Of a stretch of DNA of 32,000 nt, positions 4,798 through 28,711 are shown piece by piece; positions within the stretch are counted from its first letter, which is position 1; each line of letters opens with the position of its first letter. The position numbers and the translations under genes are program-made. Under the pieces are notes generated by a model. It was given only the letters and a program-made list of their open reading frames with translations, was not told the DNA's origin and ran no database searches. Source of the stretch: Vibrio vulnificus CMCP6 (GTDB lineage: Bacteria; Pseudomonadota; Gammaproteobacteria; Enterobacterales; Vibrionaceae); the NCBI RefSeq assembly GCF_000039765.1, contig NC_004460.2, forward strand, positions 120,001 through 152,000, written 5' to 3'.

Positions 4798-4907
4798 GCA
4801 GCAAGGTTCATTGGCATCGTTGGAAGTTACGTAGCAGAATATAGCGTATTCTCCCCGGCGAACCAATGCTGATCTGCTGTTTGCCGTTGTGTAAGGTTAA
4901 GAAAAAT

Positions 4908-8111: not shown

Positions 8112-10466
8112 CTATCGGTTCTCAAAACGATTATAGTCAAGCAATCCAAATTCGATAGGTTGATCGTTGCGATACCAAGTATGAACTTTGTCGCTAAACG
8201 ACCAGAAATTGGTTGAGCTACGACGAATCGCAAACTTATCCAATAACTTAACGTAGTCTTGCTCAGATTCCATTGAAGTAATGATTTGAACGAATTCGGC
8301 TACTTGGTTTTCGTTCAACGAGAAGAACGCCGCAGGGTAGCTTCCGACAACGCCGCGCACTATGGTGAGGTCGTCATTCGCTGGGTCACGATTTTTCTCT
8401 TCGTTAAACAAACTTGAGATGTTCAAATGTGCATTGTTGTGCAGCAGTGTATAAAGCTGCTCTTTTCCAGAGTCTGCTTTGACCATCAACATAGTAATTT
8501 GCGGGATAGGCAACAGCTTTTCACCTTTTACCAAATTCAATGACTTCAGCAATGCTTCGTTTTTCAGGCTCATGCCAGTATCGACAATCTCATAGCGCGA
8601 ATTCAGGATTGGGCTTACTTGACGGCGTAATATGTCAAACAGCTCAGACTTGGGATCATCGGTTTTATATACAACGCTAGTCGGTTGGCTAAAGGGCACC
8701 ACATTGCGCTGCAAGAAATCGCTCAGTTGGCGGTTTTGCTGTTGATACCAGCTGGATTGCTCTTGGTGGCGCATATCTGCGGGCAACAAGGCGATGAAGT
8801 TACTTTCACCTTCTAAACGAAGAAAATCCATAAACATGCGAGTGATCAACTGATGGCCAAAGTTGCCATACACATCAAAACCCGCCACTAACAAGTAGTG
8901 GATGCGTTCTAGCAAGGCGTAGTCGAGAACCCAGGCCGTTTTGGGCTTCTCACCCACCAATCCCTGTACCACTGAGGCACTATCAAAGTGACGGAACACG
9001 GTTAACGCGGCATTGGGGTTAGTGCCATTGCCATCCCATATGATGTCGGTGGTGAGATGCGTACCATTTTTAAACCAATGGTTAATGAACTCCGATTTCG
9101 CTTCTAAATAGCGAGCTTGTTGGGCGGAATATTTGACCCAATTGGTGACTGGTAGGGTGTTACTTTCGAGTTCGCCCGGTAGTTTTAGATTATCGGCTTG
9201 TGAGCGATAAAACTCATTAACTGCAGGAAGATCCGCTTTGTCAGGATCGAGGAAGAAAACCCAGAAACGATCGTTAATCACATTCAGCGCCAACTGGCCG
9301 CGGCACACTGGTCCCTTTATGTAAGCCATAATGGTGTTTTGTGCGTTATCTAGCATGAATTTAAAGCGTGCTTTCACTGGGAGGTCAATAAAAGCGCTCA
9401 TTGGGTTGGCGGCAATCTCAGGATCGTAACTTGGCAACTGCTCGACGACGTAATCTGCGTCAATAAACCACGCTTTCCAATCCTTCATTCGCTGGCTATT
9501 GAGAGCAAAAGGCATGTGTGTCTTATCAACAATCGTGCCTTGCTCGGGAATGATTCGATAGTAAACACGTTCTACACCCGGATCATCGTAGGGGCGACGA
9601 GTAACAATGCGCTGTACGGGTTCGCCTGGTGGGGTGGACGAACGAACCATAGTAAAGAAGCGAGGTTCCCCCTCTAACTCAGAGAAATAGAGATGCGATA
9701 AAAAAAGATGCTCGTAGATATAACGTGCAGCAAGCTGGTTTTTGCGTGAACTCTTATTGAACATTTGTTCGTATCGCGTGATCTCTGCTGCCTGCTCACG
9801 AGTGAGCGGGAGGTGATCGTTCATGATCGCGCCATTTTCTAACCAAGCCATGAGTGTTTGGTGTTCTTTGGCCGAAAGATTTGGCATACCAAAGGGCATT
9901 CCCCAGCTTGGATTGGTACGCTCGTACTGATCAAATTCTTCAATCGTCGGACAGGTTTGTTCGCGATCAATCGAAAAATCAAATCCTTCAAGTTGGTCCT
10001 GTTGAGGAAGGGGATGACGCTCCTTCTGTTGCAGCAATCTCGCAATCAAGCCGGCATCAATGTTGGCAACACCGGTTTGGGCACGCTCGTTGAGCACAGG
10101 ATGAAAGCCCGCATCACGCCACTCTTGGGTGGTTTGTGCATCTTCAAATAAGCGTGTGGGTGCTGTGGCTGTGAGACGAGTCCCTTGATAAACAAGCGTC
10201 TTGCTTGCGCCACGGTCAATACCTTCTACAGAAGAGAGTTTGAGTTGACATGGCGCGTCGTAGAGCGTGTGACAAACCACACATCGGTTTTCGATGATGG
10301 GCTTGACATCGTGCATAAAAAACGCACTTTGAGCCGATTGAATGTGCGCGGTCCGGTCGCGGACTTCGGCCTCGCCAAACAGCTGATCATAGTTGAGCCC
10401 AGCATAGGTGGCACAACCTGCAAAAAGTGTGACTACTGCTAGTATTAGAAATGTTCTAAATTTCAT
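8112..10466 (-). CDS. cti: Fatty acid cis/trans isomerase (cytochrome c-type, periplasmic)
   Basis: 784 aa. The N-terminal signal ends in the lipobox-like LFAGC. There is a single haem c motif in the context RCVVCHTLYDAPCQLKLSS. Size and N-terminal haem site match the Pseudomonas/Vibrio Cti family as I recall it. Confidence 0.8.
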   Translation of the reverse strand: MKFRTFLILAVVTLFAGCATYAGLNYDQLFGEAEVRDRTAHIQSAQSAFFMHDVKPIIENRCVVCHTLYDAPCQLKLSSVEGIDRGASKTLVYQGTRLTATAPTRLFEDAQTTQEWRDAGFHPVLNERAQTGVANIDAGLIARLLQQKERHPLPQQDQLEGFDFSIDREQTCPTIEEFDQYERTNPSWGMPFGMPNLSAKEHQTLMAWLENGAIMNDHLPLTREQAAEITRYEQMFNKSSRKNQLAARYIYEHLFLSHLYFSELEGEPRFFTMVRSSTPPGEPVQRIVTRRPYDDPGVERVYYRIIPEQGTIVDKTHMPFALNSQRMKDWKAWFIDADYVVEQLPSYDPEIAANPMSAFIDLPVKARFKFMLDNAQNTIMAYIKGPVCRGQLALNVINDRFWVFFLDPDKADLPAVNEFYRSQADNLKLPGELESNTLPVTNWVKYSAQQARYLEAKSEFINHWFKNGTHLTTDIIWDGNGTNPNAALTVFRHFDSASVVQGLVGEKPKTAWVLDYALLERIHYLLVAGFDVYGNFGHQLITRMFMDFLRLEGESNFIALLPADMRHQEQSSWYQQQNRQLSDFLQRNVVPFSQPTSVVYKTDDPKSELFDILRRQVSPILNSRYEIVDTGMSLKNEALLKSLNLVKGEKLLPIPQITMLMVKADSGKEQLYTLLHNNAHLNISSLFNEEKNRDPANDDLTIVRGVVGSYPAAFFSLNENQVAEFVQIITSMESEQDYVKLLDKFAIRRSSTNFWSFSDKVHTWYRNDQPIEFGLLDYNRFENR

Positions 10467-11072: not shown

Positions 11073-11096
11073 AACGAGATGCTTATCTCGTTTTGC
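11073..11096 (+). promoter_or_regulatory. Terminator-like hairpin in the 5' leader of the first PEGA gene
   Basis: Sequence is AACGAGAT-gctt-ATCTCGTT-TTGC, an 8-bp perfect stem with a short T-run, ~40 nt upstream of ATG 11132. A second hairpin, CTTGAG-cttctt-CTCAAG, lies at 11013-11030. Confidence 0.3.
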
Positions 11097-11131
11097 ACGT
11101 ACAGAATGTAACGTTATTTGAGCAGGGAACT

Positions 11132-12229
11132 ATGAACATACGTCCAATCCCAGCGCTTTTGCTTGCGCTAAGTTTTCCATGGGCATCTTCTGTGTTGGCA
11201 GAAGAGGTGAATCAGGCCGATCCAGTTGCCGCCGTTGATGAAAAAATCGATGCAAAACAACAAGAGATCAAAGCAGTAGAAGAGCAATACAGCGAAGAAA
11301 GCGGTCAACTGAAAGGGTTGAAAGGCGACAACGCTCGTTTGCAGCGAGAAGCCGAAGAGCTGGAAGCGAAACGTAACCGAGCGAAATCTGCTCTTGATAA
11401 GCAGTATGCTCGTTTACTGGAAGACCCAGATACTGACCTTGTTTCTTTCCAGAAAAAATACCAAGAGTCTTGGGAAGCGTTGAAACAGAATCAAAACGAA
11501 AAGCTCAAGAGTGATCAAAGTATCGTAGAAAGCGAATCTCGTTTATCTCAGCTAAAACAGAAGCTGGCACGCTTAAACAGTGAATACACGAATTTACAAG
11601 AGTCTCACGTTGAAGCGCGTGTAAAACGTTTGGAAGCTGAGCTTCGCGAAAGCGCGGTACTAGAAACACGTTACACGACGACTTGTTCATCAACGATGAC
11701 GATTGGCGAGTGTATTAGCCAAGGCAAATATCTCACCAAGCAAAAAGCCGTAAACACTTTTAAAGATAAACTTTTGTCAGGCTTGACGGAATCGGTGTTG
11801 GCGAAGCAAAACTTGCAAGGTGTTCAGTTAAATATCCACGTTCAAGAGAGTCAAACGATTGAAAGTGGCTTCTCAGGCAATGGTGCGTATAGCACGAGTA
11901 TTCAGGCTCAGCTTCAAGCAAAACCAGAAGCAACGGCAGCATGTAAACTACTTTCTGTATCAAGCCGCTACTGTTTATCAGCGAGCAGTAACTCATCAAA
12001 GCAAGAGAAAAAAGATTGGGTCACAGTAACGGTAAGATCGGATCAGTACAATGATGCGGTGACGATCAATGGCGTTAGCTACGGAAGTACGCCAGTCGAA
12101 TTGCTCTTGCCTAAAGGCAAGCATCGTTTTACGGTGTCGAAACCGGGCTACGAAACGTATAATCGTGAGATTTATGTCGGCTCGACCGATACCGTTTGGG
12201 TCAAGTTGGTTGAAGATAAGCAGGGGTAA
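11132..12229 (+). CDS. Secreted coiled-coil protein with a 4-Cys middle domain and a C-terminal PEGA domain (paralog 1)
   Basis: Start moved to ATG 11132 (AGGGAA Shine-Dalgarno), giving the signal peptide MNIRPIPALLLALSFPWASSVLA. About 150 aa of charged heptad-rich sequence follows. Then come Cys motifs TTCSSTMTIGEC and CKLLSVSSRYC, and a PEGA-like C-terminus VTVRSDQYNDAVTINGVSYGSTPVELLLPKGKHRFTVSKPGYETY. Confidence 0.75.
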   Translation: MNIRPIPALLLALSFPWASSVLAEEVNQADPVAAVDEKIDAKQQEIKAVEEQYSEESGQLKGLKGDNARLQREAEELEAKRNRAKSALDKQYARLLEDPDTDLVSFQKKYQESWEALKQNQNEKLKSDQSIVESESRLSQLKQKLARLNSEYTNLQESHVEARVKRLEAELRESAVLETRYTTTCSSTMTIGECISQGKYLTKQKAVNTFKDKLLSGLTESVLAKQNLQGVQLNIHVQESQTIESGFSGNGAYSTSIQAQLQAKPEATAACKLLSVSSRYCLSASSNSSKQEKKDWVTVTVRSDQYNDAVTINGVSYGSTPVELLLPKGKHRFTVSKPGYETYNREIYVGSTDTVWVKLVEDKQG

Positions 12230-12250: not shown

Positions 12251-12307
12251 TAAACGCCATTTTTCGATAATTTGGCATGTTCCCTAAGTTTTAATGAAGT
12301 ATTTATC

Positions 12308-14119
12308 ATGCGTTTAGTTTTTTCTGCACTTACACTTGCCATGCTGCCTGTTGTTGCTGGAATTCCTGCGATGGCGGAAGAAGCAAGCCCTGTGGTGGTT
12401 GTTGATGACGCTTTGTTCACCCAAAACACGTTGCTTAGCGATACGGAAAAGAAGAAATCGGCTAAACAGAATCAGTTGAATAACCAAGCAGAGCAGCTTG
12501 AGCGATTGAAACAACAAGAGGCTGAACTTGTTACGCGACTCGATAAGGCGAAGCAACAGCTTGAGAAAGATTATCAACGTTTAAGTGATACGCCTGATTT
12601 TGATTTGATGCCCGCTCAGAGTGCCTATCAGTCCGCTTGGTCTAAGGTCAAGCAGAATCAAAGCGAGCAGCTCGAAGCGCGTCAAACGCATGAAACACTC
12701 GCAAGCGAATTGGCTGCGATTAACGCAGAAGAAACGGTGATTCGTGGCAAAATTGCACAGCTTCAAGAAGAACGTCAACGTGCTCGTATTGCGACCATGC
12801 GCAGTGAAATCAGCCAGAAAGGGGATCTCACCGTATCGTTCACCAATACTTGTCGTAGCGATATGACACTTGAACAATGTGCGAAACAAACAACGACCTT
12901 AGCGCTGCAAAAAGCGGTTCGTCAGTACCAAAGCGAACTGATCGACGGAACAACCGAAGCCAAATTGGCCAAACAGAATCAATCGCAAGCCGCTCTGAAT
13001 ATCCATGTATTGAAGCACCAGTCGTCGAAAGCTGAGTTTTCAGGTGAGAATCAATACACGCAAATTCTTAAGGTTTCTTTAAACACTCGACCTGCTGAAA
13101 ATGCGCCGTGCAAGCTGCTGAACATTGATTCGAAATACTGTTTTTCTCCAAGTCAGGTCGTCGACGGTGAAAAAGTGACCGAAACCGCTTGGCATACGCT
13201 GACCATTCGTTCCAATCAATATGGTGATACCGTTTTGATTGATGGGGTGAAGTATGGCTCAACCCCTGTTGAGATTATGCTGCCGATGGGCAATCACCAG
13301 ATCAGCATTGAGAAAGAAGGCTACAGTACCTTCCGTACCGATCTGATGGTTAGTCAAGACCAAACGCTGAGAGCAAATCTAGTGGCGAAACGCAATGTGG
13401 CCAAAACGGGTGAGACGTTTGCGGATAACTTAGGCTCGTTACCAGCACCTGAAATGGCGGTCGTGACAGAAGGCACTTATATGATAGGTGAGCGTGCGGG
13501 TAAGCAAGTTCGCTTGAATCGCGGATTTTCGATAAGTACAACGCCGATTACGGTTGCTCAGTTCCGTGCTTTTGTTGACCAAAGTAACTATCAGACAGAT
13601 GCTGAATTACACAAAATCTGTACTCGTATCGAACAAGCGACGATCACACCTATTGCCAACAAATACTGGCGTGATCCTGGTTTCAGCCAGCAAGAAAACT
13701 CTCCGGTTGTCTGTGTCAGTCAAAATGACGCGAACGCCTACGTTAACTGGCTATCCGACAAAACAGGCTACCATTACCGATTGCCTACCGAAGACGAATG
13801 GGAGATCGCAGCGAGAGCGGGATCGGAAGCCGATTATTGGTGGGGCGAGAAGTTTGGTTCGGGCCAAGCTAATACAGGGTGGGGGGGAACTCCTTGGTCA
13901 AATAACAGCACTTCTCCAGTGAAGTCATTTAGTGCCAATGGCTTTGGCCTCTATGATGTGGTTGGTAACGTCTGGGAGTGGACCGCAGACAGCAAAGGCT
14001 TGTTAAAAGGCGGTGCTTGGAGCTTCTCTCCTGAAAAAGCAAAAGCGGAATCGCAGTTGTTTATTTCTCCTGATTCTGCAGCAAACTTTGCAGGATTCCG
14101 AGTTGTCAGAGTACTGTAA
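12308..14119 (+). CDS. Secreted coiled-coil / 4-Cys / PEGA protein fused to a C-terminal FGE-sulfatase (SUMF1/DUF323)-like domain (paralog 2)
   Basis: Start moved to ATG 12308, giving the signal peptide MRLVFSALTLAMLPVVAGIPAMA. It is collinear with paralog 1 (shared LAKQN, LNIHV, FSG-N-Y, CKLL, YC, RS-QY-D-V-I-GV-YGSTPVE). It has an extra ~220-aa C-terminus with FGE-family motifs: PVVCVSQNDANAYVNWL, YRLPTEDEWEIAARAG, NGFGLYDVVGNVWEWT, KGGAW, GFRVVR. Confidence 0.8.
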   Translation: MRLVFSALTLAMLPVVAGIPAMAEEASPVVVVDDALFTQNTLLSDTEKKKSAKQNQLNNQAEQLERLKQQEAELVTRLDKAKQQLEKDYQRLSDTPDFDLMPAQSAYQSAWSKVKQNQSEQLEARQTHETLASELAAINAEETVIRGKIAQLQEERQRARIATMRSEISQKGDLTVSFTNTCRSDMTLEQCAKQTTTLALQKAVRQYQSELIDGTTEAKLAKQNQSQAALNIHVLKHQSSKAEFSGENQYTQILKVSLNTRPAENAPCKLLNIDSKYCFSPSQVVDGEKVTETAWHTLTIRSNQYGDTVLIDGVKYGSTPVEIMLPMGNHQISIEKEGYSTFRTDLMVSQDQTLRANLVAKRNVAKTGETFADNLGSLPAPEMAVVTEGTYMIGERAGKQVRLNRGFSISTTPITVAQFRAFVDQSNYQTDAELHKICTRIEQATITPIANKYWRDPGFSQQENSPVVCVSQNDANAYVNWLSDKTGYHYRLPTEDEWEIAARAGSEADYWWGEKFGSGQANTGWGGTPWSNNSTSPVKSFSANGFGLYDVVGNVWEWTADSKGLLKGGAWSFSPEKAKAESQLFISPDSAANFAGFRVVRVL

Positions 14120-14214: not shown

Positions 14215-14415
14215 GTTAGCATAAGCAAATGAGCGTGACCTTATGCTACTTACTTGGTAGGCATAGCCACTTATCCCCTTCCTACTAGAAGCTGCTACGG
14301 TGTTGGCTGCATTCGTTCACTGCTCGCCAACCCGGCCTAATCACATAGCGTATCTATGCTCATGAGGACTCACTCATTTGCCGCCGACCTGCAACGCCAA
14401 GTTGTTTGGGTATAG
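14215..14415. repeat. ERIC-like (enterobacterial repetitive intergenic consensus family) imperfect-palindrome element, possibly with an extra partial copy at its left side
   Basis: The core, ~14271-14414, runs TATCCCC...GCTGCATTCGTTCAC...CTATGCTCATGAGGACTCACTCATTTGCCGCCGACCTGCAAC...GGGTATA. It aligns by eye with the ERIC consensus GCTGCGTTCGCTCAC...ATGTAAGCTCCTGGGGATTCACTCGCTTGCCGCC..CTGCAAC. The termini TATCCCC/GGGTATA are inverted. It is non-coding, and the ERIC1R primer region is recognisable. Confidence 0.55.
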
Positions 14416-14435: not shown

Positions 14436-14993
14436 TTATTCAGATTGTTGCGGCAGTTTGTGCGCGATTCCCGCATGACAATCAATACACGATTTCTCTC
14501 TTTCCTCCATGGTTTGATGCCGACGAGCAACCGTTCGATCTTGCGCAGTGAAATCCATCATCTCAACACTATGACAGTAGCGGCACTGCTGTGATTTGTT
14601 TGCCACAAATTCGTTGGTTACTTTTTCAAACAGTCTAGGTCGGTGCTCTGTCTCAAAGTTGTCCAGAGTGATGTCGCCCGACAACTTGTGAAAGATATCC
14701 GCAGTCGCCATGATTTTTAACTTGAGCTTAGGCAGCAATTCACGAGGGACATGGCAATCACTGCACGTTGCCGCAATCACACCTTTGGCGTTCTTGAAAT
14801 GAACGGACTCTTGGTATTCTTCGACAATAGTATCCATCCCAATATGGCAGCCAAAACAAAACGCATTGCTGTTGGTGAACGTCATACCCCAATGAAAGCC
14901 GCTCATGGCTATGGCACCAATAACAAAAGCCAAAACGCCTCCAAGTGGAACGCCTAACCACCATTTGTTGCGAGGTTTATCCCATAAGCTCAT
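14436..14993 (-). CDS. cymA: NapC/NirT/CymA-family membrane-anchored tetrahaem quinol dehydrogenase
   Basis: 185 aa. N-terminal TM anchor WWLGVPLGGVLAFVIGAIAMSGF. Four CXXCH motifs (CFGCH, CSDCH, CRYCH, CIDCH). Shine-Dalgarno GGGAG. It lies 26 bp downstream of the dihaem gene. There are no napAB or torZ neighbours; instead it is adjacent to mtrCAB. Confidence 0.8.
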   Translation of the reverse strand: MSLWDKPRNKWWLGVPLGGVLAFVIGAIAMSGFHWGMTFTNSNAFCFGCHIGMDTIVEEYQESVHFKNAKGVIAATCSDCHVPRELLPKLKLKIMATADIFHKLSGDITLDNFETEHRPRLFEKVTNEFVANKSQQCRYCHSVEMMDFTAQDRTVARRHQTMEEREKSCIDCHAGIAHKLPQQSE

Positions 14994-15019
14994 AAGACCA
15001 CTCCCTGATATAAACGTAT

Positions 15020-15643
15020 TTATTGGAAGCTTGCATAATATTCAACAAGTGCTTGTCGCTCTTCTTGAGATAAGGCTTTAATCGCTTTATCCATTTTCTT
15101 ATCTGCTGAACGTTTGCCTTGATGAAATTGCGTTAAGGTGGTTATCAAATAGCCTTTTTGTTGGCCAGCCAAAATGGACGCTTCATCAAGAGGATCGCTT
15201 CCACCATCGGCATGACAGCTTTCGCAACTTTTTAGGTGAATGGCTTTACCTTGGTTTGCCAGTGCTTGATCAAAAGGTTGCTTTGCGCGAACAAACTCCA
15301 TATCAGCGTAGTAGGCCGCCAGTTGTTCTATTTCCTCTTCTGTTAAAGAACGAACGATGGTTGCCATGTCTCCGGATTGACTGATATCTCCCGACACGTG
15401 TTGGACGGTATTGGCGGGGCGACCTTCTAGGTAACGTAGCATTTGGTCGCTGAGATTGAACTCAGGAATGCCCGCAATGGTGGGGATATCAGTGTGCCCA
15501 CTCACGCCATTTGCCCCATGGCATGCATCGCATTGTTTCTCGCTAACGAGGGCTTGCGTGCTAGCGAAAGCTGATCCAATTGAAGCGATAACCAGAGCAA
15601 TGGTACAGAAGATGTTGTTTAAAGTAGATTTTTTATCAAGCAT
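15020..15643 (-). CDS. pdsA: Periplasmic dihaem cytochrome c (c4-like); candidate PdsA-type periplasmic shuttle
   Basis: 207 aa. Signal peptide IALVIASIGSAFA. Two CXXCH motifs (CDACH, CESCH), one in each of two c-type repeats. It is the first gene of a two-gene operon with cymA and is divergent from mtrCAB. The pdsA name is a context-based inference. Confidence 0.6.
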   Translation of the reverse strand: MLDKKSTLNNIFCTIALVIASIGSAFASTQALVSEKQCDACHGANGVSGHTDIPTIAGIPEFNLSDQMLRYLEGRPANTVQHVSGDISQSGDMATIVRSLTEEEIEQLAAYYADMEFVRAKQPFDQALANQGKAIHLKSCESCHADGGSDPLDEASILAGQQKGYLITTLTQFHQGKRSADKKMDKAIKALSQEERQALVEYYASFQ

Positions 15644-15884
15644 AGCGTGACGTTCCTATAATTAAATAGTGCAGTGATACTTTCTAAAGTTAGTTGGCTT
15701 TCTAATTTGATAGTAATACATTATTTGAAATCTGCTCGATCTCTTTGATATTTTTGTTTGTTGTGCTAAGGAATTGAATTCGTGATTCGTTTGGATTCGT
15801 TATTGAGCTATTTTGGTATGGAATATTATTGGGTGTATAGCTTTATTTAATCTCGTTAATATCTAAATTATGACGGTGGTTTGG

Positions 15885-15898
15885 ATGATCTAAATCAA
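15885..15898. promoter_or_regulatory. Candidate FNR/CRP-family half-site palindrome in the pdsA<>mtrC control region
   Basis: aTGATctaaATCAA matches TTGAT-N4-ATCAA at 9/10 positions. A weaker site, TTGATagtaATACA, lies at 15707-15720, ~70 bp upstream of the pdsA ATG. The AT-rich background makes chance matches likely. Confidence 0.2.
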
Positions 15899-16339
15899 TT
15901 AAATGTCGTTTTTTCTCTATTCCATTTCTATGGAAATAGAAAAGATGCTTGAATTAAATGAGACTTGATATCACTTGTTGATTATGTGATTCTATTTATC
16001 TAATTGATTTAATTGCATTTTAGTTTTGTAGTTTAATTCTTAAATATTTCAAGTTCAAATGTGTGCCTTATGTCTCAAAAGTGAAATGCTATTATGTAAG
16101 TCATGTTGAATTTCTTGTCTGATAGTTGGAAAGTAATTGATAAATATAAAAATACAGATGTATTCACTCCGATAAAATATAATTTATTACGAGTTGTTTT
16201 GACTGAATCCTTCCTTTTTATGAGCTCATTACGATGGGGTGTTTTGACGGGAAATCTGGAAAAACTCCACTACAATTACGTAAAGTATAAAGCAACAACT
16301 CCAACATACAGAAGATTAATAGGAATAAGGGATAATCCT

Positions 16340-18544
16340 ATGATTATATTAAGAGCGATGTTGGCCTCTGTACTCAGTATTTTACTGATTGCTTGTGGAC
16401 CAGAAAGTGGTAACGATCAAAATACGCCGCCGCCCCAGCTTGGGAAAGACTTTACGGTCAGAGTGGCTACCCCTCAACTCGTGGTACCTGATGGGGCTAG
16501 TGAAACCAAGCTTGTGGTTGATTTTGAAGTGTTTGATGCATCAGGCCGCGCCTATGAATTCGATGCGACGAAAGATTTTCGTATCGCGGTGCTTAAAGCA
16601 ATGCCTCAAAGAAGCGGCGGTGGGCGAGATGGCAATACGTTTTGGAAGAGCTTCCACCATTCTAGTAATGACGCAACCAATCGAGCGAGCATGGAAAATG
16701 TTTGGACAGCGGGGGGAGAGTTGCTCAAAACAGATAGTGGCTACACTTATACCTTTGCGATTGCAGACATTCTGAATGTTGCCGACCCTTACCCCACTGA
16801 CTCAGCAGATAATGGTGGCATGATCGCGTGGGATGAAGACAAGTTGCATCGTATTGTGATGGCGTATGGTGACCAAGAGCTAGGATTTACCTATGTGTAC
16901 CAGTGGATTCCTGGAACACCATCCGATCAAACGGTTTCTCGCAATGTCATTGAAGAAGAGACTTGCTCTAACTGCCATATGGGTGAACCACTACATCATG
17001 GTCCTGGGTATCGTTCCATTGATAACAACATCGCGGTTTGTACGTCTTGCCACAATGACAGTAATCCCGGTGCCGCCCCACGTCGTCGACCACTGGCCGC
17101 CATCGTGCATCAGTATCACGGAAATGTGTATGCCCTCGGCTCAAGTTCAAGCGATCCGACAACCTACAAACAGCCAGTCGATAGCAATGGTGTTTTGGTT
17201 ACGGACATCAATGGATTGGTGATGGAAGGCAATCCATTTCCACAAGACGCGCGTAACTGCACGACTTGTCACTCGCAAGATGTGACAAAAGCGTCAGATG
17301 CGAACAACTGGTTTGAACATCCTAGCCAAGTGGCGTGTGAGTCTTGTCATTTGTACAGAGACAGAGGCGCACACGACAATGAAGTCGGTTTTACCTGGGA
17401 TAGAGAAACCTGCACAGGTTGCCATCGCCCTTATGAGCGAGATGAAAACGGTGACCCAATTATTGGTATGGATGCCAGCCGAAGCGCTCGCACTGTGCAT
17501 CTAGGCCGTTTGGATAACTTAGCGGCAGCACGGGATACGTTGCTTGTCAGTATTAAGCAGGCGCGCTTTGTGGATTCCATGTTTGAAGTTGATGTCATCA
17601 TTCAGAAAGATGGCGTTGGCATTAGCGCGCTTAGTGAAATCACGCCATTTATTAACGAGCATGGTCATGTCAACTTACTGCTCAATTGGGATAACGGTGA
17701 AGGCCCAATGCTGGCAAATAACGGTTTGGATCTCTCTACCTGTACCGCACAAGGCAATGGCTTGTTCACTTGCCAGAAAGACTTCACTGGCGCGACGCTT
17801 TTGCCAACTGCAACGTCGACGTTGACGGTGAATGTGGCCGATATGCCGCTGTGTGCCGACCGAACAACAGGTGAGTTGGCGGATTGCTCGACATTCACTG
17901 GCATTGATAATTTGAAATACCCTTATGTGATTGCTGCTAAGAACGCAAAAGGAACGTTTGATGTGGGCGGTATCACAACACCGCATACCTTACCTGTTGG
18001 TGCAGAGGTAACGTCTTGCAACAATTGTCACAAAGAGCTCACCATTCACAAATTGGGTGCTCATCCACACGCAGCAACGGATTTGCAGCAGTGTAAAAAT
18101 TGCCACAATTCAGAGCGCTCTGCGTACTACGCAGGCATGGCCGCGGATCTCAAATATCATGTTCATTCATTCCATGCCTTCGGCTCTGCGCATGTAGGTG
18201 AATCTGTCTTCCCTGGTGCGATTAACAACTGCGAAGCGTGCCATGGTTCAGGACAATACAACTTACCAAGCCAGAAAAATACACGACCTTCGCTGGCCAG
18301 TGGAAAATACTTCAGCCCCGCATTAGTAGCGTGTGGAGCGTGTCATATTGAATCGCCTTTGGCCAATGCCGATCCTGATACGATTCCTGGTGATGCCGTG
18401 CTCGATCATATGATCAAAAACGGGGCCGTGTTTGCCGCGGATACCGCTGTGGAAGCAACGGGTAAAGAACAGTGCGCAACGTGTCACGCCATTGGTCAGG
18501 AGCAAGGCGTAGATAAAGTCCATAAAGTGTACGAATACCGTTAA
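16340..18544 (+). CDS. mtrC: Outer-membrane decahaem c-type cytochrome lipoprotein, MtrC/OmcA family
   Basis: I trimmed the track ORF (from 16103) to ATG 16340 (Shine-Dalgarno AGGAATAAGGGA). The signal MIILRAMLASVLSILLIAC ends in a lipobox. Ten CXXCH motifs fall in two groups of five (CSNCH, CTSCH, CTTCH, CESCH, CTGCH / CNNCH, CKNCH, CEACH, CGACH, CATCH) separated by a ~190-aa Cys-pair-containing region. This matches the MtrC/OmcA four-domain layout. Confidence 0.8.
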   Translation: MIILRAMLASVLSILLIACGPESGNDQNTPPPQLGKDFTVRVATPQLVVPDGASETKLVVDFEVFDASGRAYEFDATKDFRIAVLKAMPQRSGGGRDGNTFWKSFHHSSNDATNRASMENVWTAGGELLKTDSGYTYTFAIADILNVADPYPTDSADNGGMIAWDEDKLHRIVMAYGDQELGFTYVYQWIPGTPSDQTVSRNVIEEETCSNCHMGEPLHHGPGYRSIDNNIAVCTSCHNDSNPGAAPRRRPLAAIVHQYHGNVYALGSSSSDPTTYKQPVDSNGVLVTDINGLVMEGNPFPQDARNCTTCHSQDVTKASDANNWFEHPSQVACESCHLYRDRGAHDNEVGFTWDRETCTGCHRPYERDENGDPIIGMDASRSARTVHLGRLDNLAAARDTLLVSIKQARFVDSMFEVDVIIQKDGVGISALSEITPFINEHGHVNLLLNWDNGEGPMLANNGLDLSTCTAQGNGLFTCQKDFTGATLLPTATSTLTVNVADMPLCADRTTGELADCSTFTGIDNLKYPYVIAAKNAKGTFDVGGITTPHTLPVGAEVTSCNNCHKELTIHKLGAHPHAATDLQQCKNCHNSERSAYYAGMAADLKYHVHSFHAFGSAHVGESVFPGAINNCEACHGSGQYNLPSQKNTRPSLASGKYFSPALVACGACHIESPLANADPDTIPGDAVLDHMIKNGAVFAADTAVEATGKEQCATCHAIGQEQGVDKVHKVYEYR

Positions 18545-18548
18545 CTGA

Positions 18549-18575
18549 GTGGTCCGGGAGAGCCTTCCGGACCAC
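18549..18575 (+). other. GC-rich intercistronic stem-loop between mtrC and mtrA
   Basis: Sequence is GTGGTCCGG-gagagcctt-CCGGACCAC, a perfect 9-bp stem beginning 5 nt after the mtrC stop. No T-run follows. The mtrA Shine-Dalgarno and ATG lie ~20 nt downstream. Confidence 0.5.
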
Positions 18576-18597
18576 GGTTGAGCAATAGGAAAATCTT

Positions 18598-19569
18598 ATG
18601 AAAACAACGATTCAGTGGTGGTTCGTGACGATAGTGATGGCGCTTGGTCTCTCTTCAAATTTGAGCGCCGAAGAGAGCTCTACGCAGCCTGTGGTCGATT
18701 CTCGTGAAGCGATTGAAGCAATATTGGATCAGAAGTTTAGTGACGGAAAGTATTCACGACGTGGCCCTGATGGCTGTTTACGCTGCCATGATGACGATTC
18801 AGAGTTACCCGCAACGGGAATTTTCGACAATATTCATGGTAAGTCGGCCAATATTCATGGGCCAATGAGCGACAAACAGTGTGAAGCGTGCCATGGCCCG
18901 GCAAACAATCATGAACGTAACCCTCGCAAAGGTGAAATGCGTGAACCCATGATTACCTTTGGCCCTATGTCTCCAGTGCCGTCAGAAAAGCAAAACAGTG
19001 TGTGCTTATCTTGTCATACCGACTCGAGTCGCTCAGCGTGGCACAGTAGCGAACATGCCTTTGAGGATCTCTCTTGTTCGAGTTGCCATAAATTGCATGA
19101 GAAAGACGACCCTATGATGGTGGCCGAAAAACAAGTGGAAACCTGTACTAACTGCCATGCAAAAACAAAGTCTGATCTGCATAAACGCAGTAGTCATCCG
19201 ATTCTCAACGGTTCGCTGGAGTGTTCGAGTTGTCATGATCCCCATCAAACCGTCAATGAGTACAGCTTGAAGCAAACCACCATTAATGAAACCTGTTTGG
19301 ATTGCCACTCAGAAAAACGTGGCCCATTCTTGTGGGAGCATGAACCCGTCACAGAAGACTGTTCTAACTGCCACAATCCACACGGGGCGGTCAATCAGGC
19401 GTTATTGATTAAACGGCTTCCGCAACTTTGTCAGGATTGCCATAGCGTGCCGCACGCTAATGTTGAGATACCGGAAAATGATCTCAAGGTGAGGGGAGGC
19501 AGTTGTTTGAACTGCCACAATCAAGTGCACGGAACCAATCATCCGCGCGGCATGTCATTAAGAAACTAG
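18598..19569 (+). CDS. mtrA: Periplasmic decahaem c-type cytochrome, MtrA/DmsE family
   Basis: 323 aa. Signal peptide VMALGLSSNLSA. Ten CXXCH motifs (CLRCH, CEACH, CLSCH, CSSCH, CTNCH, CSSCH, CLDCH, CSNCH, CQDCH, CLNCH). Size and haem density are typical of MtrA. Confidence 0.9.
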   Translation: MKTTIQWWFVTIVMALGLSSNLSAEESSTQPVVDSREAIEAILDQKFSDGKYSRRGPDGCLRCHDDDSELPATGIFDNIHGKSANIHGPMSDKQCEACHGPANNHERNPRKGEMREPMITFGPMSPVPSEKQNSVCLSCHTDSSRSAWHSSEHAFEDLSCSSCHKLHEKDDPMMVAEKQVETCTNCHAKTKSDLHKRSSHPILNGSLECSSCHDPHQTVNEYSLKQTTINETCLDCHSEKRGPFLWEHEPVTEDCSNCHNPHGAVNQALLIKRLPQLCQDCHSVPHANVEIPENDLKVRGGSCLNCHNQVHGTNHPRGMSLRN

Positions 19570-19579
19570 GGAGGGTGTC

Positions 19580-21562
19580 ATGAACGTATCACCTTTGTGG
19601 GCCGCCATTGTTGCCGCTCTCGCTATTCCCGCGCTCGCTGATGACTACGCCTTACAACAGGCGAGTGAGGCAGACACCAGTCGCTGGAGTTGTGAACCGT
19701 GTGAAAGTGACGGCAAGTGGATTGGGGAAATCAGTTTTGGGCTGGGATACCAAAACAACGACGGCGCATCTCGGTTTAATAACTGGGTCCCACCAATTTG
19801 GAGTTCCAATGATCCCGGAAAAGGCGTGGGTAGCAGCTTCAACACCGATCTATCGAGATACGACGAAGATGGGTTTTACAGCAAGCTGAAAATTGAAGAT
19901 CTAGGGTTAAAACGGTTTTTAATGCAACTCGATGTGGGCCAGTATGATGGCCTACGCTTCCAAGGGCGTTATCGAGAATCGCCATACTATTGGAATGGAG
20001 CATTACTCAGCACCTACAGTGGCGAAAACAACGTACAGACGGCGGGTGAGTTAGCCACTTTTGAGAAAGGTGTGAAAAGAGAAACACTGAATCTCTCGCT
20101 TGCGCTCACGCCACATTCTCCTTGGAAACCGCATGTCGCCGTTCAACATGAAAGAAAAAAAGGCACAGTGACGGCTTATACCTCCTCAATACCTGCCTAT
20201 GGCAATGTACCGGGATATCTTCCGAAGGTGGTGGACTATGAAACACTGAATACCGCTGCGGGGCTTAGCTACATTGAAGAGAAGTGGAATGCGGACATTT
20301 CTTATCAAGGCGCATTCTTTCGTCAGAAATACAGCGCCCTTTACTACGGTGAGCAAGCGAATCCGTATGCCAATCAACTGGCGTATGAGCCGGAAAACGA
20401 TTTTCATCAATTGTCACTTTCGGGAAATTACCAGCTAGAAGAGCAAAGTCTTAACGGACGCCTGCTTTTGTCACGTGCTACCTCAGAGGGGGGCATGAAT
20501 CCATTTCCTCAGTCTCCGGTCACAACGGATAGTTTCCACGGGCGAGTGGATACGGTTCAGATCGATGCGAACTATCACAATCGTTTGAGTCGTTCTACCT
20601 CGCTTAAGCTAGGGTTAGATTATCGTGATCGCGATGATCGCTCCGATCGCCAAGTGGTGATTGGTCAAACGCGTAAAGAATACGATAGGAATGTATTTAA
20701 GTTTGACGCGAAGTTGGGCCATCGTTATTCCCGCTCGTTACGCTTGAATGCGGGCTATGAGTATCGGGCAGACAAGCGCCAATACGCAGTGCGTGAAGAA
20801 ACCAATGAGCATACCTTCTATCTAGGTACCGTGTATCGCCCTGAAGCCGATTGGCGAATGGGCGGAAAACTCTCGTATCAAACACGTGATGGTTCCAAAT
20901 GGACGCAAACCTCTGCTGATGCCCCCCATCTACGTCAATTTTACCTCGCAGATCGTGAGCGTTTGGAACTGCGTGGCGATGCCAGTTACGATCTTGCCGA
21001 TAACGCACAATTTACCGCTATCGCGTGGTTGGCTGATGATCGGTATCCGCAACCTGATATCGGTCGCAGTGAAGGGCAGGATTACGGCTATGATCTCGGC
21101 GTCAGCTTTTATCTTGAAGATGACACCACGGGTCATCTCTTTTTCAATCAACAATTTATTCGCTTTGAACAGCAGCACGCCAACAGCGCAGCACCGGGTT
21201 GGAATCGCTACGAAACAGAGACAAAAGACAGTGTGACCACAGTGGGATTTGGTTTTAAACGGCAGAACTTGTTAGAGAAAAAACTCAGCTTGTCGTTGGA
21301 CTATAGCTACAACCATGGTCGTGGACAAACCAACACCATAGGAGCAGGCTACAGCTATCCAGATGTAGACTCGGTGACGCATCGCCTCGAATTTATAAGT
21401 GATTATCGCGTGGCGGAAAACCAAAGTGTGCTATTAAATCTGCGTTTTGAAGACTTCAATGAGGCGGATTATCTGTTCGATGCGGAAACGGCCAATATGG
21501 GGCGCGTTGAACAAGATTATAATGGCTTCTTCGCGATGCTTTCATGGGAGTTTCGTCACTAA
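19580..21562 (+). CDS. mtrB: MtrB/PioB-family outer-membrane beta-barrel sheath for MtrA/MtrC
   Basis: 660 aa. Shine-Dalgarno GGAGGG. Signal peptide AALAIPALA. N-terminal CXXC (SCEPCES) as in Shewanella MtrB. Alternating aromatic/polar beta-strand pattern rich in Y/R/D/N. It starts 10 bp after the mtrA stop. Confidence 0.85.
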   Translation: MNVSPLWAAIVAALAIPALADDYALQQASEADTSRWSCEPCESDGKWIGEISFGLGYQNNDGASRFNNWVPPIWSSNDPGKGVGSSFNTDLSRYDEDGFYSKLKIEDLGLKRFLMQLDVGQYDGLRFQGRYRESPYYWNGALLSTYSGENNVQTAGELATFEKGVKRETLNLSLALTPHSPWKPHVAVQHERKKGTVTAYTSSIPAYGNVPGYLPKVVDYETLNTAAGLSYIEEKWNADISYQGAFFRQKYSALYYGEQANPYANQLAYEPENDFHQLSLSGNYQLEEQSLNGRLLLSRATSEGGMNPFPQSPVTTDSFHGRVDTVQIDANYHNRLSRSTSLKLGLDYRDRDDRSDRQVVIGQTRKEYDRNVFKFDAKLGHRYSRSLRLNAGYEYRADKRQYAVREETNEHTFYLGTVYRPEADWRMGGKLSYQTRDGSKWTQTSADAPHLRQFYLADRERLELRGDASYDLADNAQFTAIAWLADDRYPQPDIGRSEGQDYGYDLGVSFYLEDDTTGHLFFNQQFIRFEQQHANSAAPGWNRYETETKDSVTTVGFGFKRQNLLEKKLSLSLDYSYNHGRGQTNTIGAGYSYPDVDSVTHRLEFISDYRVAENQSVLLNLRFEDFNEADYLFDAETANMGRVEQDYNGFFAMLSWEFRH

Positions 21563-21634
21563 GTTGTACGCGAGTGGCTTGTGGACTTTGTGCCTGGTCG
21601 AAGGAGGAGAGGTGCTAGAGCTTAAGGGAGTTGA

Positions 21635-21661
21635 GTGTCGGTGAGTCAAGATCACCGACAC
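21635..21661. other. Perfect 10-bp hairpin between the convergent mtrB and dbpA (possible terminator lacking a U-tract)
   Basis: Sequence is GTGTCGGTGA-gtcaaga-TCACCGACAC. There is no flanking T/A run on either strand. Confidence 0.4.
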
Positions 21662-21684
21662 TCGCTATGAACGGAAACGCGTTT

Positions 21685-23268: not shown

Positions 23269-26200
23269 ATGTTGTGCGCTTGTCAATCAATCGCTACACT
23301 TCCCCACCTTATAATCATCACTAGAGAGAGTTGTTGCTTGTTGTTACGAATCGCCGCGATCGCTTTGCTTAGTTTGCTCACATCATTGACCTCTGCGGCT
23401 AATTATCTATCAGATGCAGACCGCGATTACCTTTCAGCCCATCCGGTGCTGAATGTCGGCATTCTAAACAATAGTTGGTTACCATATTGGGGAGGGCTAG
23501 AGCTCGCGCCTCAAGGTATTCACCACGACTACGCAATGAGCTTTGCCAGAGAGCTAGGCATACAGATCCGCTACCAAGGCTACGACAGTATTCGCGAGAT
23601 GCTGCTTGGGTTAAAAAACGAAGAAGTGGATATGGTGATTGGCTTTGGCAAAACGCCGTCTCGCGCAAATGATTTCCTGTTTTCATTGCCGCTGTACAAA
23701 AATGTGCGCGTGATTTGGTTACGCGACAAAGCCCTTGAGCTTGAACCGCTCGAATCCCTCAAATGGGTCTGCGTTGAAAAAACCTCTTATTGTGAAGTGC
23801 TGGCCGAGCGGGGTTATCACAACGTTATCACCGCACGCAATTATCAGGCCGCTACGCAAATGATCTTGCAAGGGTTAGCCGATGCCACTATCAGCAACTA
23901 TGTCTCGCTTAGCCATTTCTTGAGCGAAAAAGAGGTCAGCCAGGGCAAGGTGTTGTTTGACAAGTCACTGGGTACCCAAATTAATCGTGTGTTGTTTAAC
24001 AAAGAGCAGCGCAAACTGAAGTCCATTATCGACAAAGTGATTCTGGCAGAACAAAGAGGCTTAACACGCAGTCGAATTCATTCAAAAGACATCTATTTTT
24101 TGAATGATCAAGCCAGCCTTCGTTTGCTGTTTGACGAAGGGCGAGAGCAAGTGATTCGTTATACGATCGAAGAAGAAACCTTTCCACTTTCCTATCGCGA
24201 TCAAGATGGAAAAGTGAAAGGCTATGTGCACGATATTCTGGATCGTATCAGCATGCGCAGCGTACTCGAATTTGAGTATGTGCCAGCGGAAGGGCGCGAT
24301 GTGCTGCAAATGTTGGAAGATGGTGTTGTTGACCTTCTGCCTGCTCGTAACTACCAAGGCGTGGACCAGCGCGACTTTCTCGTCACCGAGCCCTATGCCA
24401 ATATCACTTTTGATATGGTGGAAAGTACCGCTGACTATCAAGAGCGTAATCTGGCAATTCTTGATCGCACGGGCAACTACTACTCCTATCTGGATGTGAA
24501 TCGAGACTATCGAAATGTGCGTGTGTTCCGTGAGTTAGAAGAACTCTTACCGCAATTGGAATCGGGCAAAGTGAGTCACGCGTTGATGAATCAGGATCTG
24601 ATTCATCAACTATTGATTGACGATCATCGCGATCACTTTAAGCCACTGGCGGACTCGTTAGAGACCGAATTCGTCGTTAAATTAGCAATGGTGGTTCGTA
24701 AAGACGATCCCATGTTTCATGACATGCTAAACACTGCGCTGAAGACATTCTCCGTAAAGGAGATCGATTCTATTCAGTCTGCCTACCGCAAAGTAATGCT
24801 TCATTTTGGCTATGACAAGCAGCAGGTCATCATCTACTCGTTGATCGCTTTGTGTCTGGCGTTGCTGATCGTTTTGCTGTTTTCTCTTTGGTCGACACGC
24901 TTGAAAGACTCGTTGCGTCAGAGTGAAAAAGTGGTTGAGTTGTCTCAACATCAAATCAGTTGGTTAACCAAGTTGCTCGATACCATCCCTAGCATGATTT
25001 CCATTTCGGACTCAAAAGGACGTTTGGTGCTTTCAAACCAAGCTTATCAAGCGAGTTTTCGTCAATGTCGAGAGAATGGCTGTGTCGATCTAGAGAGCGC
25101 CTGTTCGTTTCTTCATTTATCTGAGCGAGAGCAAGCTGAATTTGAAGAGATCATTCAAGTGCCGGCCAGCGAATGTGGTCTGGGGGAGCGTTTTTACCAT
25201 GTGACGCGCAAAGCCATCCTCCATGACCAGATGGAAATGACTCACTATCTCACGCTGTTTAGCGATATTTCAGACTTGAAGCAAACCGAGCTGGCGCTGC
25301 GAGAATCCAACCGCGCGGCGTTGCAAGCCGTTGAAGCACGCAATCAGTTTTTAGCGGTGGTGAGCCATGAATTAAGAACCCCGATTGCTGCCATGTTGGG
25401 GCTGATGGAGATTCTGTCTCATCGCCTTTCAAACAGTGAAAGTCAGCAATTGCTTGATAACGCCATCCGTTCGGCTGAGCGTCTGAGTTTGCATGTGAAC
25501 GACATTCTCGATTTCTCAAAAATTGAGGCAAGCCAGTTGCAGCTAGACATTCAAGAGTATCGAATTATCGAAGAGCTGGGCCCTGTGTTACGAAGTTTTG
25601 AAGCAAGCGCGCAGCTAAAGGGATTACAGTTTAACGTTCATTGGCAACCCACGGCGTATATTGACGCGCAGTACGATGCGTTGAGAGTGAACCAAATTGT
25701 CAGCAACTTGCTTTCTAATGCGGTGAAATTCACCGAAGTCGGGCAGATAAAGGTGGAGATTGCTTGCGACGAAAATGCGCTATCGATTGAGATTGTAGAC
25801 ACTGGCTGCGGTATGACTGAGGCTCAACTCGATTGTGTCTTCCAGCCGTTTGTTCAAGCCGATACCAGCATTACTCGCCGCTTTGGGGGGACTGGCCTTG
25901 GGATGTCTATCGTCAAAAGTTTGCTGGATTTGATGGGAGGCACCATCGCATTCTATAGCGAGCTAGAGCAAGGAACCAAGGTGTCGGTCTGGATCCCGGT
26001 TAAAGGCCGCGCTTATGCGAGTGAGATTGAAGTGGCGCACTACCTCGGCGCAAGTGACCTCGTCATGGCTTGGTTCGAAAAATGGGGTACGCGAGGGAAT
26101 GCTGTGCACGGTTTGCCAAAGTTTGTCGATTGGTCATTATCGCCCATGGATAACCTCTATCCGGATTTATTACTCAAACAGTGGCTTGCTCAGGAGTCTG

Positions 26201-26940
26201 ACAACGTTCGCCGTCCCAATGAACAAGTGACCCGCCAGTTGCAGGGCAGGGTGCTGATCGTTGATGATGAACCGATCAATCGCTTATTGATGCAAAAACA
26301 GCTAAAAGAAATCGGCATTACTAGCGTTGCGCTGGCCGATGGTGAACAGGCGTTTCGTTATCTCCAACAGCATGGCGAGGGCATTGATTTGTTGATCACC
26401 GACTGCCATATGCCAATCATGGATGGTTTTGAATTAACGGCAAAAACGCGTAGCGATATTCTCTCATTTGCGGCGAAACCAATTGTTGGGTGCACCGCTG
26501 AGGATTCACGCATCGCAGCAGAAAAAGCCATGTCAGCCGGGATGGATAAGGTGATCTACAAGCCGTATTCACTGGCACAACTGCAACGCGTACTCGCGCA
26601 CTATTTGCCTGAGCAAGTTCAACAAGCGGACACTAACGCCAATTGGTTAAAGGAATATCAAGAAGAAGAAAGAGAAGAGATGGCGAATGTCGTTATCGAG
26701 TCATTTGGTTTTGATATTGAACAGCTCGAACAAGAAGGTGCCGATGTCGCGGCCATTGCTCACCGTGTAAAAGGGGCGGCAGGTGCTTTACTGTTGCATG
26801 AGTTGGCCGCGTTGGCGAAACGCGTTGAACAGCAAAAAGAACCTGAGCACGTTGAACGTAACAAACAGCAATTGATCTTATCCATGCAGACGGTGGTCGA
26901 GCAGGCGAATGCATGGTTAGCCAGTTCAAAGGGAGAGTAA
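23269..26940 (+). CDS. vieS: VieS-like hybrid sensor kinase: two periplasmic SBP_bac_3 (Venus-flytrap) domains, TM, PAS, HisKA, HATPase, REC, HPt
   Basis: 1223 aa in the track ORF. The true start may be an in-frame TTG near 23338, giving LLLRIAAIALLSLLTSLTSA as the signal. TM VIIYSLIALCLALLIVLLFSLW; H-box FLAVVSHELRTPIAAMLG; NLLSNAVKFT; DTGCGM; GGTGLGMSIV; REC RVLIVDDEPINR...LLITDCHMPIMDG; HPt AHRVKGAAGAL. It is followed by vieA- and vieB-like genes, as in the V. cholerae vieSAB operon. Confidence 0.75.
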   Translation: MLCACQSIATLPHLIIITRESCCLLLRIAAIALLSLLTSLTSAANYLSDADRDYLSAHPVLNVGILNNSWLPYWGGLELAPQGIHHDYAMSFARELGIQIRYQGYDSIREMLLGLKNEEVDMVIGFGKTPSRANDFLFSLPLYKNVRVIWLRDKALELEPLESLKWVCVEKTSYCEVLAERGYHNVITARNYQAATQMILQGLADATISNYVSLSHFLSEKEVSQGKVLFDKSLGTQINRVLFNKEQRKLKSIIDKVILAEQRGLTRSRIHSKDIYFLNDQASLRLLFDEGREQVIRYTIEEETFPLSYRDQDGKVKGYVHDILDRISMRSVLEFEYVPAEGRDVLQMLEDGVVDLLPARNYQGVDQRDFLVTEPYANITFDMVESTADYQERNLAILDRTGNYYSYLDVNRDYRNVRVFRELEELLPQLESGKVSHALMNQDLIHQLLIDDHRDHFKPLADSLETEFVVKLAMVVRKDDPMFHDMLNTALKTFSVKEIDSIQSAYRKVMLHFGYDKQQVIIYSLIALCLALLIVLLFSLWSTRLKDSLRQSEKVVELSQHQISWLTKLLDTIPSMISISDSKGRLVLSNQAYQASFRQCRENGCVDLESACSFLHLSEREQAEFEEIIQVPASECGLGERFYHVTRKAILHDQMEMTHYLTLFSDISDLKQTELALRESNRAALQAVEARNQFLAVVSHELRTPIAAMLGLMEILSHRLSNSESQQLLDNAIRSAERLSLHVNDILDFSKIEASQLQLDIQEYRIIEELGPVLRSFEASAQLKGLQFNVHWQPTAYIDAQYDALRVNQIVSNLLSNAVKFTEVGQIKVEIACDENALSIEIVDTGCGMTEAQLDCVFQPFVQADTSITRRFGGTGLGMSIVKSLLDLMGGTIAFYSELEQGTKVSVWIPVKGRAYASEIEVAHYLGASDLVMAWFEKWGTRGNAVHGLPKFVDWSLSPMDNLYPDLLLKQWLAQESDNVRRPNEQVTRQLQGRVLIVDDEPINRLLMQKQLKEIGITSVALADGEQAFRYLQQHGEGIDLLITDCHMPIMDGFELTAKTRSDILSFAAKPIVGCTAEDSRIAAEKAMSAGMDKVIYKPYSLAQLQRVLAHYLPEQVQQADTNANWLKEYQEEEREEMANVVIESFGFDIEQLEQEGADVAAIAHRVKGAAGALLLHELAALAKRVEQQKEPEHVERNKQQLILSMQTVVEQANAWLASSKGE

Positions 26941-26943
26941 CCG

Positions 26944-28710: not shown

Positions 28711-28711
28711 T

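Follow-up and report, generated by a model that had tools for sequence, protein, structure and literature searches.

Introduction

Extracellular electron transfer (EET) has been tested experimentally in Shewanella, in Aeromonas hydrophila, which has a NetBCD-PdsA-MtrCAB system (Conley et al. 2018, AEM 84:e02134-18), and in Vibrio natriegens, for which a 'hybrid' CymA-PdsA-MtrCAB route is described (Carpenter et al. 2026, bioRxiv 10.64898/2026.05.06.723379, citing Conley et al. 2020, AEM 86:e01253-20). Here we analyze a 32,000-nucleotide stretch of Vibrio vulnificus CMCP6 (contig NC_004460.2, positions 120,001 to 152,000, hereafter the window), in which five genes at 14436-21562 form a cymA-pdsA-mtrCAB cluster, and compare this locus with the described systems. 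All positions are those of the window.

The survey of mtrCAB across Bacteria by Baker et al. 2022 (PMC8805035) placed Vibrio, Aeromonas and Photobacterium in 'Group 2', found pdsA in all members of this group, and regarded mtrCAB together with pdsA and cymA (netBCD) as a transferable full EET kit, that is, a mobile unit, whose distribution within Vibrio is uneven. According to the same study, both Group 2 organisms that have been tested experimentally reduce Fe(III). 'Vibrio vulnificus CMCP6' is itself listed in Table S1 of that study (Tree Group 2, EET = ND), and mtrCAB in V. vulnificus is also mentioned in two further papers (PMC6048853 and PMC13270974). The cluster is therefore already known, and the remark in a first-pass annotation of this DNA that its distribution in the lineage looks untested has to be withdrawn.

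Results

The five-gene cluster

The cluster consists of five intact open reading frames (ORFs) in two divergent groups. On the reverse strand lie a cymA-like gene (14436-14993), whose 185-aa product is predicted to be an inner-membrane-anchored tetrahaem quinol dehydrogenase of the NapC/NirT family, and pdsA (15020-15643), encoding a 207-aa periplasmic dihaem c4-like cytochrome, the predicted electron shuttle. The forward strand carries mtrC (16340-18544, with the ORF open from 16103) for a predicted surface decahaem lipoprotein of the OmcA/MtrC family (734 aa), mtrA (18598-19569) for a 323-aa periplasmic decahaem cytochrome that by homology would be inserted in the MtrB barrel, and mtrB (19580-21562) for a 660-aa outer-membrane beta-barrel protein of the MtrB/PioB family. 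Between the two groups is an AT-rich intergenic (promoter) region of 696 bp (15644-16339). The intergenic gaps are 26 bp for pdsA-cymA, 53 bp for mtrC-mtrA and 10 bp for mtrA-mtrB, and the first of these suggests that pdsA and the cymA-like gene form one operon.

Counting of the haem-binding motif CXXCH gave 4 in the CymA-like protein, 2 in PdsA, 10 in MtrC (arranged as 5+5), 10 in MtrA and none in MtrB, that is, 26 motifs in approximately 1449 codons, and this density is far beyond chance. For comparison, the rest of the window contains 10 CXXCH over all six frames. By the same count, no multihaem gene besides the cluster members is present in the window, and there is no second mtrC. Thus, what characterizes Group 2 is found here: a contiguous mtrC-mtrA-mtrB, divergent pdsA and cymA, and a single mtrC within the window. 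From these observations, together with the family and synteny data described below, the region is very probably the Group 2 Mtr EET cluster of V. vulnificus CMCP6, with an electron route that can be assigned by homology.

The first-pass annotation had proposed the same five ORFs, 26 haem motifs including the 5+5 layout and lipobox of MtrC, the 10-bp and 53-bp gaps, and the absence of a periplasmic FccA/STC-type tetrahaem gene nearby, and all of these were reproduced by our ORF check and recount. Its gene assignments, namely a TM-anchored tetrahaem NapC/NirT-type protein, a dihaem c4-like PdsA with a signal peptide, MtrC, MtrA and a barrel protein with an N-terminal CEPC motif, also survived every comparison with family models and solved structures.

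Exact protein look-up found identical sequences in the V. vulnificus CMCP6 records AAO07104 (the CymA-like protein), AAO07105, AAO07107 (MtrA), AAO07108 and AAO07109, which places the cluster on chromosome II. By the same look-up, near-identical variants are found on hundreds of V. vulnificus contigs, including those of strains YJ016 and MO6-24/O. Public databases already name the products 'Decaheme cytochrome c MtrA' (the UniProt name of AAO07107), 'MtrB/PioB family decaheme-associated outer membrane protein' and 'surface localized decaheme cytochrome c lipoprotein, MtrC'.

The outer-membrane conduit

Family membership was judged by NCBIfam and Pfam models against their curated cut-offs, and solved structures were searched by phmmer against PDB chains. 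MtrB scored 522.9 bits with the MtrB/PioB model TIGR03509 (cut-off 240.05) and 485 bits with PF11854 (cut-off 23), and aligned with 6R2Q_B over residues 8-637 against 10-666 (1.4e-53). By homology to this structure, we infer a 26-strand barrel sheathing MtrA. The signal peptide of MtrB ends with ALA, and the whole protein has just two Cys, which form the N-terminal C38-E-P-C41. We inspected the MtrB N-termini from 17 Vibrionaceae/Aeromonas loci and 3 Shewanella loci, and all 20 have such a CXXC at this position. In a 2014 study by Wee et al., an N-terminal CXXC was reportedly the signature of MtrB from metal-reducing gammaproteobacteria.

MtrA has a signal peptide, 24 His and no Cys other than those of the haem motifs. 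Its score with the DmsE/MtrA model TIGR03508 was 320.3 bits (cut-off 192.2), and residues 12-321 matched 6R2Q_A, a chain of the S. baltica MtrCAB complex, with an E-value of 1.1e-90. The gene context of mtrA is of the Mtr type, since it lies between a gene of the OmcA/MtrC family and mtrB, and neither a molybdopterin reductase nor dmsAB was found in the window. A DmsEF or other respiratory module was considered and rejected, because an OmcA/MtrC-family gene is present and a dmsAB-type reductase is not found in the window. The first-pass annotation had allowed for such a grouping of the decahaem proteins, and also for a barrel protein that does not match the MtrB/PioB models; the results for MtrC, MtrA and MtrB argue against both.

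For mtrC, public annotations disagree on the start codon and give 728, 734 or 813 aa. The likely start is the ATG at 16340, because the N-terminus obtained from it, MIILRAMLASVLSILLIAC, contains the lipobox LLIAC with Cys19, and because the 734-aa length agrees with public annotations. The 734-aa form is called 'OmcA/MtrC family' in V. vulnificus records and 'MtrC' in strain MO6-24/O. The protein scored 543.2 bits with the OmcA/MtrC model TIGR03507 (cut-off 209.3), and PF22113 matched it twice, at domains II and IV. The nearest PDB sequences were those of MtrF (3PMQ, 2.6e-18) and UndA (8.9e-17). As the sequence reaches only MtrF and UndA structures, the name MtrC is based on family membership and gene position.

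The part of MtrC between the two pentahaem domains (residues 468-516) has two non-haem Cys pairs, C468/C478 (CX9C) and C505/C516 (CX10C). In the MtrC-family proteins of Shewanella, the corresponding stretch has one conserved disulphide, CX8C.

Inner-membrane and periplasmic components

Reading the translation of the cymA-like gene, we found at the N-terminus a hydrophobic helix, WWLGVPLGGVLAFVIGAIAMSGF, which corresponds to the membrane anchor. The protein scored 187.3 bits with PF03264 NapC/NirT (cut-off 24.1) and matched NrfH (2J7A) at 4e-9. In other Vibrio/Photobacterium loci, the gene at the syntenic position encodes a protein of 66-75% identity, and the CymA name used here for this putative quinol dehydrogenase follows those syntenic Vibrio genes.

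The signal peptide of PdsA ends with AFA. Aeromonas proteins that bear the name 'periplasmic diheme shuttle PdsA' match it with 50-56% identity over 90-99% of its length, and the homologues of V. parahaemolyticus and V. alginolyticus with 61-68% identity. The divergent position of pdsA relative to mtrCAB is kept in 16 loci. Among solved structures, PdsA is closest in fold to the dihaem subunit of flavocytochrome c sulfide dehydrogenase (1FCD_C, 3e-18) and to cytochrome c4. From the former match, a role as a subunit of that enzyme was considered, and it was ruled out because no flavoprotein gene is adjacent and the synteny with mtrCAB is kept.

Synteny and the dbpA junction

For the synteny analysis, one genome per species was searched with MtrA, and all proteins of the window were mapped on the 80 mtrA loci obtained. 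The arrangement of the window, with cymA and pdsA transcribed divergently from mtrC-mtrA-mtrB, was identical in 12 other Vibrio/Photobacterium loci (L002-L012 and L017). Four Aeromonas loci have pdsA and mtrCAB without cymA, and Shewanella loci share mtrA, mtrB and mtrC alone, with 23-53% identity.

Conservation did not extend to the surroundings of the cluster. None of the flanking genes of the window adjoins the cluster in other Vibrionaceae/Aeromonas loci, and the one recurrence of a flanking gene in the 80 loci was a dbpA homologue (57% identity) located approximately 4 kb beyond mtrB in Ferrimonas gelatinilytica (L018). The V. parahaemolyticus homologue of pdsA is carried by 3.6-Mb contigs and hence by the other chromosome.

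The dbpA neighborhoods of the closest relatives, V. floridensis IRLE0018 (L081), V. navarrensis and V. cidicii, were then compared with the window, a comparison across Vibrionaceae at this junction having been proposed by the first-pass annotation. In V. floridensis, whose DbpA is 94% identical, dbpA and the three-gene operon with a REC-EAL protein are collinear with the window, and the DNA similarity extends up to position 21679, a point just beyond the hairpin described below and a few bases after the stop codon of dbpA. No mtr genes are present at this junction in V. floridensis IRLE0018. Across it (L081, 11729-15742) are instead an autotransporter gene, a gene for a 399-aa protein without family match, and a 193-aa phage-integrase fragment, and by this content the site 3' of dbpA appears to take variable insertions in the clade. 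V. navarrensis and V. cidicii have dbpA alone in common with the window. As to the left boundary of the non-syntenic segment, no gene of the left flank was found in the 10 kb around dbpA of V. floridensis. The break of synteny agrees with the patchy occurrence and mobility published for this type of cluster.

Control region and flanking elements

The GC content of the divergent region between pdsA and mtrC is 0.29, compared with approximately 0.46 for the window. Two near-consensus sequences in it are candidate regulatory sites, an FNR-like ATGATCTAAATCAA at 15885 and a CRP-like TGTGCCTTATGTCTCA at 16062. The region gave no confident alignment with other Vibrio loci. It contains no ORF longer than 30 aa except for the in-frame extension of mtrC, and no Rfam family matched it at E<=1 save a chance-level hit of the small nucleolar RNA snR41 (E 0.77, 16163-16243). 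In four loci of other Vibrio species (L004, L005, L008 and L009), we noticed a CRP-like TTTGAGCGnnATCACA, with 1-2 mismatches, at a constant spacing of approximately 262-272 bp upstream of mtrC, and the site is followed by a conserved TTATGTCTATACTCATA block. These species may share a CRP-dependent promoter, which is not clearly conserved in V. vulnificus.

Downstream of the cluster, between the convergent mtrB and dbpA genes, there is a hairpin at 21633-21663 with the arms GAGTGTCGGTGA and TCACCGACACTC, which form a perfect 12-bp stem with a 7-nt loop. The 122-nt spacer that holds it (21563-21684) folds with -45.2 kcal/mol (z = -3.1), and none of 200 shuffled sequences was as good. The hairpin was not called by the scan for consensus terminators, because no T-run follows it. 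It is probably a transcription stop or a stabilizer of the mRNA end.

At the other side of the cluster, an element resembling the enterobacterial repetitive intergenic consensus (ERIC) occupies 14272-14415. It shows 70-76% identity to unannotated intergenic elements of approximately 128 nt in 2978 E. coli genomes, and it matches 'Vibrio RNA AS5' of Rfam (V_AS5, RF02818) over the full model length with E 1.6e-11 and 57.7 bits, the gathering score being 96; no Rfam family reached the gathering threshold in the window. V. floridensis has a copy elsewhere (L081:17512-17639). These matches point to V_AS5 as a family of dispersed repeats. No copy was found in any of the 80 mtrA loci, indicating that the repeat does not belong to the cassette, and it does not fold more stably than its shuffled versions (z = -0.8). 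We therefore rejected the element as a boundary or mobility feature of the cassette. The first-pass annotation had described the cassette as lying between an ERIC-like repeat and a hairpin, and both elements are confirmed by these matches and by the fold of the spacer.

Neighboring genes

Beyond dbpA, a three-gene operon on the forward strand (23269-30379) encodes a 1223-aa hybrid kinase with two SBP_bac_3 domains, HisKA, HATPase and REC, a 588-aa REC-EAL-LuxR protein, and a 555-aa REC-TPR protein. We take this layout to resemble that of V. cholerae VieSAB, and 'cyclic di-GMP (c-di-GMP) regulatory operon', as the first-pass annotation had called this neighbor, is therefore a fair description. 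A separate gene for a 313-aa EAL protein follows the operon on the reverse strand (30876-31817).

On the side of the cymA-like gene, two adjacent paralogues on the forward strand (11093-12229 and 12272-14119) each encode a signal sequence, a long coiled-coil and a PEGA domain, and the second has an extra C-terminal FGE-sulfatase (SUMF1-like) domain. In none of the 80 loci do the two paralogues adjoin the mtr genes. Farther upstream, 3784-7820 contains torT, for a periplasmic binding protein, and torS, for a kinase with a TorS sensor domain, and these are adjoined by the gene for the cis/trans fatty-acid isomerase Cti (8112-10466). Neither torCAD nor torR was found in the window. The Cti gene contains the sole CXXCH (nt 10283) that lies in a real gene outside the cluster.

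Discussion

The electron route of the V. vulnificus cluster can be proposed from homology to the tested systems of Shewanella, A. hydrophila and V. natriegens. The membrane-anchored tetrahaem CymA-like protein would oxidize (mena)quinol, and the soluble dihaem PdsA would ferry the electrons over the periplasm. Decahaem MtrA, threaded in the MtrB barrel, would then move them through the outer membrane, and the decahaem lipoprotein MtrC would hand them at the surface to Fe(III), Mn(IV), flavins or an electrode. From these relatives we likewise infer that the genes are expressed, which way the electrons flow, what accepts them and what the system does for the cell; in V. natriegens it is reported to balance the redox state and to aid survival under anoxia, and the same is probable here. 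The hybrid CymA-PdsA-MtrCAB route put forward in the first-pass annotation finds good support in both homology and synteny.

Several results weigh against this interpretation. The CymA-like protein is just 31% identical over 153 aa (E 1e-20) to S. oneidensis CymA (AAN57551, verified by exact match), and the family models put it as close to the NapC and TorC N-terminal models as to anything, so that orthology to CymA over NapC/TorC is tentative as judged by the sequence alone. With NCBIfam NF049874, PdsA scored 261.6 bits (E 4.6e-78, model positions 6-198 of 198), which is under the curated cut-off of 330 of this 'exception'-type model, and for this reason the NCBI name of the protein is merely 'c-type cytochrome'. 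In the phmmer search, MtrC did not match the PDB chains of Shewanella MtrC or OmcA even at E<=10. None of the matches in our homologue searches was named V. natriegens, and we found no experimental test of EET in V. vulnificus in the searchable literature. In addition, our evidence covers the window, and the genes for cytochrome c maturation and menaquinone synthesis lie outside it.

The similarity of the CymA-like protein to other quinol dehydrogenases raises the question of whether it serves, together with PdsA, as a general periplasmic hub for soluble-acceptor reductases, in the manner of a NapC/TorC-type quinol dehydrogenase, with extracellular reduction by MtrCAB being secondary. With the NCBIfam models, the CymA-like protein scored best for the N-terminal region of TorC (175 bits) and for NapC/NirT (172.5 bits), torS and torT lie 7-10 kb upstream, and Shewanella CymA serves several reductases. 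Nevertheless, both scores are far below the curated cut-offs, the cymA-like gene always occurs with pdsA and mtrCAB in the 12 syntenic loci, and the window is without a terminal reductase gene. In V. natriegens, moreover, deletion of cymA or pdsA abolishes the reduction of both Fe(III) and electrodes, and we regard a general hub as very improbable. An inward conduit as in PioAB or MtoAB, which would mainly take up electrons from Fe(II) or a cathode, is conceivable in so far as MtrB/PioB and MtrA/PioA/MtoA are each one family and Mtr conduits are reversible in Shewanella. The cluster has the surface reductase MtrC and pdsA/cymA rather than mtoD/mtoC or pioC, and the Group 2 organisms tested so far both reduce Fe(III); electron uptake as the main function thus appears extremely unlikely.

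The cassette might also be present but cryptic, that is, horizontally acquired and transcribed hardly or not at all by V. vulnificus in nature, with little physiological contribution. The low GC content of the divergent control region, the location of the cluster at a synteny break with the sister species, its unrelated genomic contexts in other Vibrio species, and the deleterious effect of mis-balanced decahaem gene expression in V. natriegens are all compatible with this possibility. On the other side, the five ORFs are intact and show few variants among the hundreds of V. vulnificus contigs, which come from both clinical and environmental isolates, and such conservation argues for purifying selection and hence for use, which makes a cryptic state quite unlikely. 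We consequently prefer a Group 2 EET cluster that is probably in use, with the outward route described above. A more far-reaching proposal is that the cassette is a lineage-defining acquisition of V. vulnificus, conserved across the species and absent from the dbpA junction of V. floridensis, which contributes to iron-dependent ecology or virulence, possibly under control of the VieSAB-like system. The contribution might consist, for example, in reduction of Fe(III) in host or sediment, or in redox balance in anoxic niches of oysters or wounds. This proposal is unlikely on the present evidence.

As the cluster type, its pdsA and cymA passengers, its patchy, mobile distribution and its presence in CMCP6 are all published, the sequence finding adds little. 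What is new is the break of V. floridensis synteny at the dbpA stop, where that species is without mtr genes, the lack of connection between the ERIC-like repeat and the cassette, and the 31% identity of the CymA-like protein to Shewanella CymA. In V. vulnificus, a lethal pathogen, virulence is linked to the supply of iron. Proof that extracellular Fe(III) or electrodes are reduced by this route would be useful but incremental on the work with V. natriegens and A. hydrophila, and the same holds for an effect of the route on survival in sediment, oysters or wounds.

Compared with Shewanella oneidensis and S. baltica, whose CymA and MtrCAB (6R2Q) comprise a quinol dehydrogenase, a decahaem cytochrome in a barrel and a surface decahaem lipoprotein, the plan of the V. 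vulnificus system is alike, and MtrA is 48-53% identical and the N-terminal CXXC of MtrB is kept. In contrast, MtrB and MtrC are just 23-26% identical and CymA 31%, with MtrC matching the MtrF and UndA structures. The carrier also differs, being the dihaem c4-like PdsA here and the tetrahaem FccA or CctA in Shewanella; cymA is linked to the cluster in V. vulnificus, and the paralogous mtrDEF/omcA genes are not present here. The system of A. hydrophila is similar in that PdsA (50-56% identity) is encoded divergently from mtrCAB and the MtrCAB proteins belong to the same tree group. Unlike V. vulnificus, the Aeromonas loci are without a cymA-like gene beside pdsA, and NetBCD is the quinol dehydrogenase there (PMC8805035).

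From V. natriegens, the V. vulnificus system is distinguished by its host, a human pathogen, by its location on chromosome II and by a junction that is not common to other Vibrio loci. Relative to the Harveyi-clade loci sampled (e.g. V. diabolicus), identities are 52-56% for MtrB, 66-71% for MtrC, 71-73% for MtrA, 60-67% for PdsA and 68-75% for CymA. Features in common with V. natriegens are the lack of an mtrDEF or omcA paralogue and of an FccA/CctA gene beside the cluster and, in a comparison by published description, the same five components, which belong to Group 2 of Baker et al. in both organisms.

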